Source of the DNA: Chloropicon primus
Taxonomy: Eukaryota
DNA: 64,000 nucleotides
NCBI GenBank assembly: GCA_023205875.1
Contig: CP060765.1
Location: 62,001 to 126,000 of the forward strand
Direction: 5' to 3'
The notes below the pieces were generated by a model, which was not told the DNA's origin, ran no database searches, and was given only the letters and a program-made list of their open reading frames with translations. This document shows, piece after piece, positions 21,466-29,361 of this stretch (position 1 is the stretch's first letter; each line of letters opens with the position of its first letter). Position numbers and translations under genes: made by a program.

Positions 21466-23806
21466 TCAGGCACTCCCGTTCCCGTTGGCCTCGTGGAAGA
21501 CCCCGTTATCTGCCGGGGCGACGGCCTTGGCGGGCTTTCTCGCTTCACTTTGCATCTTTCTGCTAACCATCTGTCGCCTGTGACAGATGGCACAGAACGT
21601 GTTGAGCTTGCATTTCTTCTCAGGGGAAATGTACGAAGCAAAGTTCTTCCAGGTGTGGCACTGAGTGCACCACTTGAGGAACACCTTCCCGTCCTTGGAC
21701 TCAAGGCACAAAAGATGCCTCAGCCTGTGGTCGACCTTCTTGCGATTCAGGTTGAACCCCCGGATGGAGGCACAATTCGCGTCGATCCAAGCCTGGTAAG
21801 AGGCCTGGCCCTCCCCCTTGACGCAATCGGAGCAGAAGCCGGTGAACTTGTAGTTTTCCAGCTTCTTTTTCGCCTCCGAAGTGCTTCTGACGTTGCAGCA
21901 GGAGTCCGATTTGGTGGCCACGAATCTCCAGCTTTTCTCGCCAGTCTCCTGATCCAGGTTTGGAAACATCAGCACAGGGCCCAGGGAGTTTATGCACACC
22001 TTTTGGTTGTCGCTCACCCTCAAGTTTGGGTGGTACACCTTTCCCTGGCTCCTCTCGCGCTCGATGATTTCTGACAAGTTCCCCCTTTTCGGTATTGGAT
22101 TGTTCTCCTCAACAAAGTCAGGAATTTTGTCAAAGGGAAAGAACAGAATGTCTCCCACCCTGTTAGGGCTCTCGTAGTACTCCCTCAGTGTCGCCTTATC
22201 GACTTTCACGCTGTCCAGGGCCTCCACGAACACCTGCTCATTCGGGTACCAGAAAGAAAAGTCGGTCACGGGTATGCTGTTCAAGTACTCCAGCTGCATC
22301 GCCCTGAGCCTCTTTGCTTCCTCCGGGCTGACTTCCGAGTGCTTCCTCTTGCTCTTCTTCTTCGCACAATTGCTGCCAGCATGATGCTGCAGTGAAGAAC
22401 GCGCGGTTGTGGCAAGCTGGCCGCCCTCCCCTGTCGTAGCCGCGCCGTTTCCGACCGCCTCTCCGTTCAACTTCTGCTGCTCAGAGATTTCGGGCGTCTT
22501 CGGGGCATCGACTACTGCGGAGACCCCTCCTATGGTGACGTTCCCGGCCACGGGCAGCCCATTCACGCCCTGAGTGGCGTGGGGCTGAGCCGCGTCTTCG
22601 ATGACTTCGCGAGCCTGCTCCACGACGCTAGCGGGGACCGAAGGCTGGGTGATCCCGGCCCCAACCCCCTGCTGGATGGCATCGCTCGACATTTTGCTCT
22701 TCTTCTCGTTCCTTCTCTTCTGCAGCTGCTTTTCCCTGGACTTGACTTGCCTCTCGTAGCAGTTCCCGCAAAAGGTGTCGATGCCTGGGCTGGGATCCTC
22801 CGGATTGCTCATCATCCCGGAGCAGAACTCGTTGAGATTCTTCCACAGGTGGCACTGGGTGCACCACTTCAGGAAGACTTTCCCTTCGTCCATCTCCAAG
22901 CAAAGCATGTGCCTGAGCTTGGTCTCCCCCTTGTTCCTCTGCAAGTTGAAGCCGCGGACAGTCTTGCAGCCGTTGACCCTCCAGTTTTCCTCCGAGCCCA
23001 TTTCGGAACCAAACACGTGGTACTGGCAGAAGCCCGTGTTCTTGTAGTTTCCGAGCGTCTTCCTGTTCCTGTTCTGGGAGCAGCAGTTCCCCTGGCCGTC
23101 CTTGGCGAGCTCGGCCTCGACGAAAGAGTTCTCCCCCTTCATGGGATACAGCAAGGTTGGCCTGAGGGAGACGATGCAACGCCCTTGAAGGTCGCTTATT
23201 TTCGTCAGGACCCTCCCCTTCTCCTGGAGGGAGTGCTCCGGCTCCAACGCTGGGTGGGGTGCGTGCGCCACCTCGCCGTTGGGCATGGGGATGATGGGGT
23301 GCTTCTTCCGGATCATGCGGGAGCTCACCTCGAAGAGCGGCAGGCCGCGCTCCCTCTTGAAGCAAAGGATGTCGAACAGACGGTTCTTTCGGGACAGGTG
23401 AGTCCTCAGGACCTCCTTCACCTGCAGCAGCGGAGATAGGGCGAATAGTGAGGACGCGAGTTAGTTAGTTCAAAGAAGCGGGCGAGAGGTAGTGGACGTG
23501 ACGTGACGTGACATGACGGGACGGGACGTGATGCGACTCGCATTCTCAGGAGCAGAAGCGAGCGCAGTAATCGTCCAAGAAAGCCGAGACGTATTCGTCC
23601 AAGAAGTTCTTGCATACCTGGGCATCCTCCGTCTCGCCCTCGGCCCCGTCGTCCTCGACAAGCCTCTTCGAGGACACCGTGATGGAGACCCTGTCCACGG
23701 CCTTCCAGAACGTGTCCTCGTTCGGCTCAAAGGTCGCCGGATCCGAATCCTCGCTGCTCGCCTTCTCGCCCCCGAACCCTTGCATCTCCACCAGGGAAGA
23801 GTTCAT
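21466..23806 (-). CDS. Protein with an internal duplication of a Cys/His-rich SBP-like zinc-binding module; exons 23806-23618, 23421-21466
   Basis: CAG|GTATGC donor, CTAAC branch and CTGCAG acceptor in phase 0. Two copies of ...GFC...RGFNL.R.K...LRH.LCLE...GKVFLKWCTQCH.WKN...TFC..C..RQ. Confidence 0.8.
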
Positions 23807-25020
23807 TGCGACTGGCTGACTCTCCAGGAGAGAGACAGAGACAGATAGAGTGTGTGTGTCCCACCGAACTCCAGCAACCTTTGTGGTGGTGGTTGGTGGT
23901 CCCGCCGCGCTCGACAAGAAGTCTGTGACACGCCGATCCAAAAGCCCTTCACCTCCTCCTCTTCCCTCGATCCTTTGGTCCTCCCTCTCCCTGCTGCCAG
24001 GTCGTGACACACGAATCGAATCGAATCGAATCGATGGTTGTGACAAAACACTCCGTTGCTTCTCCTCTGTCCCAGCAACCTCGACGCCTTCGCCCCTCTC
24101 GCGTTCACCACAATCCCTCGCAAGAGTTCAGTCGATGCGATTGGATGCAATGTTTGGATCAATGACGAAACAAGGAAGGGTCCTCCTCCTCCTCCTCCTC
24201 CTTTTGCTGCTGCTGATGCCCCGTTTACCGATTACCGATGCCTTCGTCTCGTTCTCGTTCTCGTCCTAAACCAAAAAAAGGATGAAGAATTAGAAGAAGA
24301 GGAAGAAGAACAAAAACCTGTCGTCGCCTTCCGCTCTCGTCCTCGTCGCCGCTCTCGTCGTCGTCGTCGTGATGATGTTCTCCTTCTCCTCGCCCAGGAC
24401 GCGGCACCTCGTGACTCCGGTCTCTGTCGATCTCCGCAATTCGCGAGACGAACGCAACGAGGCCAACAATGAGTGTACAAACATCGAACGGAACGTCACA
24501 AGGAGAACAACTACTACGATACGTGTGTCCCATTCTACGTGTGAGGTTTAATGTGTTGTTTTGGGTGTAAACAGCCGCCAGAGAACAAAACGAGGGAATA
24601 AAAAAAGTCGGCGGATCAGAAAAGGAGGAAACCTCGTCGGCGGCCTAGAGCGGAACGCATCTCGCTCCTCCTTCAAACAAGCAAGCGAGCGAGCAATGAA
24701 GTGAGGAAGAAGCTTGATGAATGCGCACATACACACACACGCTCTCTCTCTCTCTCTCTTTTTTTTTGTTCACCTCTCTCTCTCTCTCACACACATGGGG
24801 ATGAGGAAGACGAGAAAGCGGCGTCGGGATCATAATGGGTTCCCGACGTCCAGCCACGACGACGACGACGATGATGATGAATTGAAATGAGAATGGGAAT
24901 GGAAGATCTCACCCATTGACATGACTTTCGATGACTCACAAGGTAAGGCTTGGGACATTGGCTCCTCCCTTCCTCCTTTCTCTTCTCTTTCTGTTTTGAT
25001 TGGAATGGAATGGATCTCGT

Positions 25021-25120
25021 AGCTGCGAAGTGATGATACAACCAAACAACAACCATTTCCTTACCGAAGACTCAACATGAGAGAAACACTTTTACATGCA
25101 CCACCAGCTGATCGCTAGCT
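25021..25120 (+). ncRNA. Box C/D snoRNA, predicted guide for the 18S rRNA Um equivalent to yeast Um1269 (snR55/SNORD33-like)
   Basis: Box C GTGATGA 25030-25036, box D CTGA 25108-25111, terminal stem 25011-25028/25112-25128. Guide CATGCACCACCA is complementary to conserved 18S UGGUGGUGCAUG; the D+5 rule selects the U. Confidence 0.85.
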
Positions 25121-25321
25121 ACGATCCACAACAACTTTAACAGCAACAACAACAACAAAGGGTTGCTTGCTGCTTCTGCTGTTGTTGCTGTTGTTGTCTT
25201 CGCCTCCAACCACCCTCCCTGCCTCTCTCTCTCTTGAGTTGTTTCTCTCCCAATTGATCCATTGCAATTGGACTGACGCATCGCCTCCCTTCTTTCCTTC
25301 GCCGCCCTTGCAGGTAAGGTG

Positions 25322-25560
25322 CAGTTCGAAGGGCCACTTTCGGTGGACTCCATTTTTCCACTGGGCGAAAGTCCCCGGGCTCTGAGGCAGAGAGTGCCAA
25401 CCCTAACAGGGTGAGACCCCCGTGCCGGCTCTCGCTCCCCGGAGCTTGCTGCCCGCGGGGTAGATAGCCAAATCACACAGTTATGTGGCCAGCAGGCTGG
25501 AGTCTCCTCCCAGGAGGAGACGAAGGCCTTGCCAACTCAACGGGGCTTACTCTTGGGCTG
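25322..25560 (+). ncRNA. RMRP: RNase MRP RNA
   Basis: CR-I GAAAGTCCCCGG (25367-25378) pairs with CR-V ACGGGGCTTA (25540-25549) as P4. P8 GGCA-GAGAG-TGCC has the MRP-specific GARAR loop. Also P2 GGCCAC/GTGGCC, CR-IV AGTTA, P1 CAGTTCGA/TTGGGCTG and a P19 hairpin. Confidence 0.93.
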
Positions 25561-25668
25561 ACACCCCTCTCTTGAAGTGTGCGTTTCCTCCCTTCGTTCC
25601 AGAGAGAACAAGGTAAGGCGATGCGCAGCAGAGGGGAACGGACCGGGGTCGTGTGTTTTGTATTGCGC

Positions 25669-25755
25669 GTGAAGTGATGATTAGCAATCACCCATATCAC
25701 CTTGCAGACCTGTTCTGAATCTCGTTGATTGACACTCATGCACCCCTCTGATCAC
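25669..25755 (+). ncRNA. Double-guide box C/D snoRNA: 18S Gm equivalent to yeast Gm1428 (snR56/SNORD25-like) via D', probably Gm1271 equivalent (snR40/SNORD32-like) via D
   Basis: Box C GTGATGA 25674-25680, D' CTGA 25715, D CTGA 25748, GTGA/TCAC stem. TTGCAGACCTGTT pairs with 18S AACAGGUCUGUGA; CATGCACCCCT pairs with GUGGUGCAUG with one mismatch. Confidence 0.85.
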
Positions 25756-25971
25756 AAGCAAGCAAAACACACGAACCCCTTTCCGCCTCAGAAAAAAAAG
25801 TATCCAGAGGCGAGCGACTGACTCAAACCCCCCTCCCCTCCTTTCTTCATTCAGCTTAGGCGTGTCGGTATACAAGCATATATTCCTAAAGAAAAAGAAG
25901 AAGTCAGTCGCACAATAACGGCTCACTGGCACGCTCGTTGTCATTCATTACATTACTATTGGCTATTGCCT

Positions 25972-26699
25972 CTACTCGGCGCCGTCTGTCCCTTCCACGG
26001 CGACGACGAGGTTCTTGTGCAAGATGTAGCAGTCCGGAGGGTCGATCCTCTTGTAGTAGTTCGGGATCATCTCCTTGATCGAAAAGCCGTGCTTGCCGTA
26101 AAACCTTATCGCCCCATCGTTGTTTGTCTGCACGTGCAGGTAAGCCTCTTCTATGTTCGGGTCCTCCCTGGCCACCCGCAGGGAGTGCTCCAGAAGATGT
26201 GTCCCCACGCCAAGGTCCCTGTAAGGCGCTAATACTCCCAAAGTCATGATGTACAGTTTGGCTTTCCCTTCCCCTTTGCTTTCCAGACGGCAAGCGATCG
26301 CCCCCACGAGGATGTCGTTATAATACGCTGCAGCGCACGGGAAGAGGACAAGAAGGAGACTGTCAGCCCTCCGCAGGAACTAATTCTTCCCCCGAGCCAG
26401 CCCAATAACAACAACAACATCGACCATCAACTCACCTAGCTGCGTCACGTCGCCGCACGCTATGCAGTCACTGTAGAACTTGTCCTGAAGACAATTCGCG
26501 AACATCGGATGAGTCAGTGGCCTTCCCATTCCCAAGCAGGCAGGAAGGAAAGAAAGAAAGATGAATGGGCCAGTCAAGGACCGAGGAGATCCCATGGCAC
26601 CCCTACCTTATACTTGACAGGAAATATCGCAGCATTCAGTTGCTTCATTTGCTTCAAGTTCTTGTCCCTGACGGAATCCAAAACAATGTGGATCTTCAT
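25972..26699 (-). CDS. NAA50: N-alpha-acetyltransferase 50 (NatE catalytic subunit); exons 26699-26607, 26484-26436, 26327-25972
   Basis: LNAAIFPVKY, AYYNDILVGAIACRLE, YIMTLGVLAPYR.LGVG, YLHVQTNN and NYYKRI.PPD motifs. Both introns are in phase. Confidence 0.93.
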
Positions 26700-28527: not shown

Positions 28528-29361
28528 ATGGAAGGGAGCAGGGCGACGACGCGGAGGGCCGGGACGAGGGCGGTTGGGCTGGCACAGGCAGCGCGAGGAC
28601 GCGCCGTGAGGGCGATGTCGGGATCAGCCAAGCTTTACGACATCCCGGTGAGCAACAACGGAGCTCGCTGCAGGATTGCCATCTACGCTAAGGGCCTCGA
28701 GGACAAGATCGACATCGTTCCACCGTCGGATCTCGGTGGGATCAAGTCCGAGGAGTACATGGCGCTGAATCCGAAGGGCAAGATGCCGCTGCTGATCACG
28801 GAGGGCGGGATAGCGTTGTGGGAGAGCGAGGTCATCCTTCAGTACATTCTGGACAAGTACGATGGGCCGAGCTTCACCCTGGAGACCCCGGAGGAGAGAG
28901 CCCTGTGCGCGCTGAGCACCAAGATCTTCGACACGTACATGCAGCCGATCCAAGGTTGCCTGTACCGTGTGTCGGAGTCCGCCGAGCAGAGGGCGTCGGA
29001 GCTCAAGGTGATGGATGAGAATTTGCACACGCTGGAAGACTATTGCAGCGGCGGGGAATACTTTTGTGGCCCGAGCCCCTCGAGTGCGGACATGTCCCTC
29101 TTTCCCTCGTTTGTCTTCTTTGAGGTCATGCTCGAGCGGCACTTCGGCTGGAAGGACTGGGGCTACGAGAAGCCCAAGCTCAAGTCGTGGTACGACAACC
29201 TGAAGAGCGGCGGCGACGGGAGCGAGTTCACCAAGCACACGAGGAGGGTCTACGACGAGATTTACCAGGCCCTGGTCGCGTGGGAGGAAGGCGGGAGGTG
29301 GGAGACCACGGGGGTCAACGCCCACAAGAAGGAGGAGGAGTACAAGTGGGTGTACCCCTAG
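28528..29361 (+). CDS. Glutathione S-transferase family protein with a putative transit peptide
   Basis: LNPKGKMPLL...LWESEVILQYI (GST N-domain cis-Pro and ES motifs) and YFCGPSPSSADMSLFP in the C-domain. Confidence 0.85.
   Translation: MEGSRATTRRAGTRAVGLAQAARGRAVRAMSGSAKLYDIPVSNNGARCRIAIYAKGLEDKIDIVPPSDLGGIKSEEYMALNPKGKMPLLITEGGIALWESEVILQYILDKYDGPSFTLETPEERALCALSTKIFDTYMQPIQGCLYRVSESAEQRASELKVMDENLHTLEDYCSGGEYFCGPSPSSADMSLFPSFVFFEVMLERHFGWKDWGYEKPKLKSWYDNLKSGGDGSEFTKHTRRVYDEIYQALVAWEEGGRWETTGVNAHKKEEEYKWVYP

Follow-up and report, generated by a model that had tools for sequence, protein, structure and literature searches.

How are a snoRNA and an RNase MRP RNA released from one transcript when no exon lies between the introns that carry them? 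This question is posed by a host gene of the green alga Chloropicon primus located in the window, that is, the whole stretch of 64,000 nucleotides analysed here. GACTGAC starts at position 25271 and contains a candidate branch motif, CTGAC, at 25273–25277, which is followed by a 34-nt tract (25278–25311) that is 82% pyrimidine and free of AG. The sole AG between the branch A (A25276) and 25313 is that at 25312–25313, and GTAAGG follows directly at 25314. The initial annotation had described a 3′ splice site (CAG, 25311–25313) abutting a 5′ splice site at this point, and this description was confirmed. The composite CT[GA]AC..[CT]AG/GT[AG]AG occurs once in the whole window on both strands (in 1 of 126 CTRAC motifs the first AG is followed by a donor), compared with 0.017 and 0.003 occurrences per 64 kb in Markov nulls of order 2 and order 4, respectively (300 simulated windows each; the motif was defined post hoc). 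An acceptor abutting a donor, together with branch site and tract, is far beyond chance.

In the unspliced sequence, introns 1 and 2 each have a complete set of GT, branch and AG. A stwintron, described as a nested intron breaking up the donor, branch or acceptor of an outer intron, was rejected because no splice element of an external intron is interrupted and both introns are complete. Our reading, to which we assign a probability of about 0.75, is that the site is a recursive splice point: intron 1 with snoRNA A would be removed first, the rebuilt donor would then remove intron 2 with the MRP RNA, and each lariat would give one RNA after debranching. The features of the locus are listed in Table 1.

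Table 1. Mapped and predicted features of the host transcript (window coordinates)
Feature	Position	Strand	Evidence
Exon 1, 3′ part	24906..24942	+	X3 record 17; joints with 27–30 letters on the exon side
Intron 1, 371 nt; donor GTAAGG 24943–24948, acceptor CAG 25311–25313	24943..25313	+	Contig joint 24940>25312 (GT..AG at cut +2), X3
C/D snoRNA A, SNORD33/snR55-like; C box 25030–25036, D box 25108–25111	25030..25111	+	32.1 bits, below threshold 44; 74/82 letters identical to L001
Intron 1 branch site CTGAC (predicted branch A25276) and polypyrimidine tract	25273..25310	+	Sequence; putative branch
Zero-length exon CAG/GTAAGG, junction 25313/25314	25311..25319	+	Sequence; intermediate joint in 1/3 runs
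Intron 2, 264 nt, approximately co-extensive with MRP RNA; donor GTAAGG, acceptor AAG 25575–25577	25314..25577	+	Acceptor: contig joint 24939>25575 (cut +3), X2 and X3; donor use predicted
RNase MRP RNA (Rfam limits)	25319..25563	+	RF00030; predicted P1 helix 25318–25329 with 25553–25565
Intron 2 branch site CTGAC, in the 3′ strand of P1; predicted branch A25561 bulged	25558..25562	+	Unpaired probability 0.99 (folding)
Exon 2, 35 nt	25578..25612	+	Contig joints, X2 and X3
Intron 3, 242 nt; donor GTAAGG, branch CTGAC 25818–25822, acceptor CAG	25613..25854	+	Contig joint 25610>25853, X2 and X3
C/D snoRNA B	25674..25751	+	Sub-threshold SNORD33, snoR41 and snR56 matches; 77/78 letters identical to L001
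Exon 3, as far as mapped; adjoins convergent GNAT acetyltransferase gene	25855..25961	+	X3 record 19

The gene thus runs from exon 1 through intron 1 directly into intron 2 and continues with exon 2, intron 3 and exon 3; the contig covering exon 1 extends 77 letters further upstream than 24906. Both snoRNAs matched the Rfam SNORD33 family below its threshold (32.1 bits for A and 24.4 bits for B). Compared with L001, a metagenomic locus described below, identity amounts to 90% for snoRNA A, 99% for snoRNA B and 80% for the MRP intron, and to 27–58% for the exons and intron flanks. An ATG frame of at least 57 codons crosses the spliced exons, and neither exon sizes nor exon sequence are conserved. 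Judged from this comparison, the host transcript is likely non-coding, with a conserved non-coding RNA in each intron and diverging exons. Between snoRNA A and the branch site, an (AAC)n/(GTT)n microsatellite inverted repeat (25140–25210) forms a long hairpin, which is not kept in L001.

To follow the splicing of this transcript, contigs of three runs (X2, X3 and X10) among the ten listed were examined; the best holder, X1, and the metatranscriptome runs X4–X8 (share 0.05–0.07) were left out. The runs were classed as RNA by an automatic guess, and GT..AG joints are present in neighbouring genes, where introns at 23420–23615 and 26328–26435 (minus strand) were confirmed by contig joints. The initial annotation had named an RNA joining 24942 to 25314 as the intermediate to look for. 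This joint, with the MRP intron retained up to 25604, is present in one contig of X3, one of the three runs (321 nt, mean depth 14.1), with 28 letters on the exon side and 8 letters that fit either side of the joint. It was absent from X2 and X10, the latter hardly covering the locus, repeats aside. The exon-free end product, 24942 joined to 25578, was found in two of the three runs, X2 (depth 26.5) and X3 (depth 26), and both also contained the joint 25612/25855. Removal of intron 2 before intron 1 would lead to the same product; a joint 25313/25578 was found in none of the three runs (X2, X3 and X10), whose contigs drop rare forms.

Use of an upstream AG, which had been considered as a source of an ordinary exon ending at 25313, was rejected. 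The only AG in 25200–25276 is GAG at 25237, upstream of the branch, and no exon lies between 24942 and 25578 in the contigs of X2 and X3. Likewise, the acceptor CAG 25602, which would leave a 10-nt exon 2, was absent from the contigs of the three runs and may be a minor form. Of the 660-nt intron originally proposed, the division at 25313/25314 stands, with its intermediate in X3, and the two lariats would follow from it; its length had to be corrected to 635 nt (24943 to 25577), as the acceptor is AAG at 25575–25577 and not CAG 25602. The further suggestion of a similar zero-length site at 24943 had to be dropped: the stretch 24906–24942, which holds the TTGAC in question, is kept in spliced contigs, so that an ordinary exon precedes this donor. 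Moreover, TTGAC differs from the CTGAC of the three introns here, and the stretch behind it is 60% pyrimidine.

The intermediate joint lies within a direct repeat, AGGTAAGG, present at 24941–24948 and 25312–25319, and therefore template switching by reverse transcriptase or a microhomology deletion in the DNA would yield identical letters. The joint would then be an artefact or a DNA variant, and the site unused or an unproven acceptor. In line with this, the joint comes from a single contig of a single run, intron 1 is left uncovered in X3, the comparison of the joint covers RNA-classed runs, and Chloropicon primus is described as diploid with large indels (PMC6731263). We nevertheless consider such an origin improbable. 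The repeat is necessarily created by any acceptor that abuts a donor, and its two copies are not paired with each other by folding (summed pair probability 0.08). X3 shows the reverse of what template switching would give: the joined form was assembled, but intron 1, and with it the unspliced substrate, is missing. A deletion would take out a snoRNA that is kept in relatives, and on either account the full acceptor with branch, tract and CAG would be without a reason.

The end product by itself is explained equally well by one 635-nt lariat. The donor at 24943, which is used in both joints seen, might take either the CAG at 25313 or the AAG at 25577; the RNA joining 24942 to 25314 would then be a dead end, and snoRNA A and the MRP RNA would be cut from the single lariat by an endonuclease, for which the long hairpin of intron 1 could serve as target. 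Luo et al. raised the same alternative for fungal complex introns (PMC3596301). For the present locus it appears unlikely. The donor context AAG/GTAAGG is identical before and after the first step, that is, exactly rebuilt, and relatives, in which the intron can have no other donor, keep that of 25314 at the 5′ end of the MRP RNA. Use of this donor is deduced from its conservation and from the intron 2 contig of X2, which starts exactly at 25314 with 25298–25313 uncovered; this is depth arithmetic on contigs, which cannot map ends, and it hints weakly at cleavage at the intron 2 donor. In X2 the contig depth, a poor measure, was 65.4 for intron 2 vs 6.9 for intron 1 and 15.6 for intron 3, and the intron 2 contig was the sole intron contig of X3.

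The claim that the downstream intron holds an MRP RNA was borne out by RF00030, which matched 25319–25563 over the full model (1–266) with 103.3 bits at a threshold of 50. In the predicted fold, 25318–25329 pairs with 25553–25565 to form helix P1, which is opened by the intron 2 donor and contains the predicted branch, A25561, as a bulge. When six sequences were compared, 89% of the cells were paired in a P1 with bulged A, vs 29–45% in slid controls. Compensatory changes had altered both sides in 4 of 17 pairs, sparing the donor hexamer and CTGAC. The covariation score of 0.322 was reached by 0 of 500 shuffles, and the count of two-sided changes by 50 of 500; such tests are inflated by kinship.

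T-runs stop Pol III, and the MRP RNA has a T5 run inside (25353), no upstream TATA and no T-run terminator behind it; a Pol III type-3 gene was rejected on these grounds. Metagenomic loci of this type, recognisable by TATA and T-run, fall into clusters of their own (4 of 22), in which both the donor and CTRAC are absent. An independent Pol III gene within one long intron, where GTAAGG and CTGAC would be kept merely as P1 sequence, is thus very improbable, although MRP RNA is of Pol III type in animals and Ostreococcus (PMC4287351, PMC7671301) and the letters in question are constrained by P1 pairing. This constraint acts on the pairs, whose compensatory exchanges leave the two splice motifs unchanged.

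Under recursive splicing, the donor at 25314 would attack via branch A25561 to give a second lariat, and after its debranching P1 would close over both ends. The MRP RNA would thus need almost no 5′ trimming, and no endonuclease would be required to part it from the snoRNA. Pairing of U2 with the branch site and formation of P1 are mutually exclusive, so splicing would have to precede folding, which would account for intron 2 being the retained intron. Sequestration of donor and branch site in P1 may slow the splicing of intron 2 and thereby make the intermediate visible. The modelled P1 of C. primus is short and would even allow the MRP RNA to persist as a lariat.

To examine conservation, metagenomes were searched for MRP RNAs with a pattern of two exact core motifs at a spacing of 147–177 and no splice signal, which samples MRPs unevenly. 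The pattern gave 69 matches at 63 loci in 22 clusters. A search of viral contigs gave no match. Seven of the 63 loci (L001, L035, L050, L007, L015, L020 and L032; five distinct sequences in 4 of the 22 clusters) share the design of the window: the MRP 5′ end carries GTAAGG (GCAAGG in L032), and the last core motif is followed, after three bases, by CTGAC in P1. A guide resembling snoRNA A lies upstream in six of the seven (the sequence of L020 ends early), and one resembling snoRNA B downstream in six of the seven. L001, L035 and L050 represent the syntenic orthologue, in which both neighbouring genes match. Here, the intron 1 branch is located 92 nt before the MRP donor with four AGs in between, which predicts an exon of 40 nt. 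From sequence, exons of 105 nt (L015), 106 nt (L020) and 35–46 nt (L032) were predicted for the other loci, and L007 was ambiguous.

The zero-length state is therefore not conserved, and the expectation that AGGT would be kept in orthologous loci did not hold in this sense; in the relatives, AG/GT would be kept solely as an ordinary donor. Since this donor is kept at the MRP 5′ end in seven of the 63 loci and is preceded there by a predicted ordinary exon, it is functional by descent. Given the 40-nt exon predicted for the syntenic orthologue, the state in C. primus is likely a recent, derived exon loss in a non-coding snoRNA host. One deletion from the acceptor AG to the last AG of the exon would suffice, by which an internal exon of about 40 nt may have been lost between two AG dinucleotides. 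The loss would have been harmless, because the exons lack conserved sequence.

Several further features were seen among these relatives. In L015 (1096–1381, minus strand), L020 (267–556, plus strand) and L032 (359–689, plus strand; with a GC donor), the donor lies entirely within P1, GTAAGG pairing with CCTTAC, an arrangement that would not permit the lariat to persist. In L007 (464–559, plus strand; 46.8 bits) and L015 (2259–2349, minus strand; 47.3 bits), the cluster includes one more snoRNA, of the snoZ159/U59 family, on its upstream side; in the window, no Rfam match to this family passed the threshold. Between snoRNA A and the MRP RNA there is a conserved element of about 130 nt, in three tandem copies in L015 (about 260–590 nt upstream of the MRP core) and once at the 5′ end of L020; it is possibly an unannotated H/ACA snoRNA. 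L063 (1201–1540, plus strand) contains a related MRP RNA whose 5′ end shows CAG/GTGGGG; CTGAC is located outside P1, on its downstream side, and no snoRNAs were seen. It is situated directly upstream of a DXD glycosyltransferase frame, whose 5′ UTR intron is possibly the host. A Pfam scan of 43 flanking frames of the metagenomic loci gave one match above the cut-off, in L063, and one below.

A second set of intron-like MRP loci, termed group B, comprises 29 of the 69 matches (23 of the 63 loci: L003, L004, L008, L010, L012–L014, L018, L023, L025, L026, L028, L036, L041, L042, L044, L046, L048, L049, L051, L052, L060 and L061). P1 starts at the G of an AG/GT, and a second AG/GT follows a few bases past P1, 261–281 nt from the first; TATA, T-run and CTRAC branch are all absent. 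An example is L051 (1282–1562, minus strand), and those scanned scored 103–147 bits in Rfam. L019 and L054 resemble group B by eye. L041, L046 and L061 (1281–2476, minus strand) each contain three tandem units of MRP plus spacer, about 460–470 nt apart, with intron-like ends in each unit. By its sequence, group B appears to represent a second lineage in which the MRP RNA makes up an entire intron. The combined reading, that a second, unrelated group of eukaryotes (the 23 loci) would independently have an MRP RNA filling an AG/GT...AG/GT intron from its first base, and that the short P1 of C. primus permits an MRP lariat, is one that we favour slightly.

At the ratchet points of Drosophila and vertebrates, AG/GT rebuilds a donor after the first step of long-intron splicing. 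The donor is rebuilt at AG/GT in C. primus as well, but the span is 635 nt rather than tens of kilobases, and the pieces are ancestral whole introns with their cargo instead of arbitrary segments; an animal long-intron ratchet point was rejected on account of this span. The initial annotation, which stated that recursive splicing is described mainly for very long animal introns, overlooked the nearest known case, fungal snoRNA hosts whose short introns adjoin without an exon. In fungi, Luo et al. (2013) described 61 or more exon losses and juxtaposed, exon-free snoRNA introns with 5′-to-3′ intermediates (PMC3596301), and Donovan et al. (2016) recursive splicing with an exon size of zero in clusters of Candida and Debaryomyces (PMC5033589). 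As in these 'complex introns' of fungal snoRNA clusters, the host in C. primus is likely non-coding, each intron carries one non-coding RNA, no exon lies between them and a short exon is predicted in relatives. Even snR55, whose family is resembled by snoRNA A, is represented in Candida cluster II. The defining features of the fungal type, a conserved non-coding RNA in each intron and an internal exon predicted in relatives, were both found in the algal locus. Unlike in fungi, the downstream intron is an RNase MRP RNA whose donor and branch lie in P1.

Zero-length exons have also been mapped in a 336-nt snoRNA-host intron of Schizosaccharomyces pombe, SPNCRNA.445 (10.1101/226894), and in a 375-nt intron of Cryptococcus neoformans BOT1 (10.1101/224170). 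In both cases, as here, a short intron is split where an acceptor abuts a donor. Both cleavages or branches were mapped in the two fungi, whereas the branches of C. primus are predicted from sequence; the S. pombe site has been kept across species (10.1101/226894), whereas the syntenic relative of C. primus lacks the zero-length state.

Regarding the MRP RNA, the related RNase P RNA is embedded in introns in insects and crustaceans (PMC4287351, PMC6797745), and in Drosophila, Rat1/Xrn2 and the exosome trim away the rest of an intron that is longer than the RNA (PMC6797745). These RNAs resemble the case proposed here in that an RNA of the P/MRP family is made by Pol II and freed by splicing, but the MRP RNA of C. 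primus approximately fills its intron and overlaps the branch site. In 26 insects MRP is a Pol III gene (PMC4287351), and in Ostreococcus it is intergenic and likely transcribed by Pol III (PMC7671301). An intronic MRP RNA is also listed, in one sentence, among the stable intronic RNAs of the red alga Cyanidioschyzon merolae (10.1101/2025.12.01.691491). The main text of the C. primus genome paper mentions neither snoRNA nor MRP (PMC6731263), and the accessible part of PMC8287931 does not mention an intronic MRP. Neither a green-algal zero-length exon nor splice signals within MRP P1 turned up in a literature search, which covered few subscription papers.

Taken together, the site is backed by sparse RNA data, is lineage-specific, has counterparts of its kind in fungi and extends a fungal and animal phenomenon to a green alga. 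The syntenic relative with its predicted 40-nt exon and C. primus with none provide a before/after pair. Less familiar is the downstream intron, an MRP RNA with donor and branch built into P1, which is common to several relatives and apparently paralleled by group B. MRP RNA is usually regarded as an independent transcript. Here, it is likely made by the spliceosome from an intron with its splice signals within a conserved helix. With such an intron, the competition of a structured RNP RNA with U1 and U2 over shared nucleotides becomes open to test, as does the question whether debranching is needed in rRNA processing. Promoter-based screens and gene annotation will misread MRP loci of this type.

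Two protein-coding genes downstream of the host were assigned as well. The neighbouring gene encodes a GNAT acetyltransferase, which we take to be NAA50-like. At 28528–29358, the window contains a glutathione S-transferase gene, whose best named match is a Chloropicon mariensis transcriptome protein with 69% identity.
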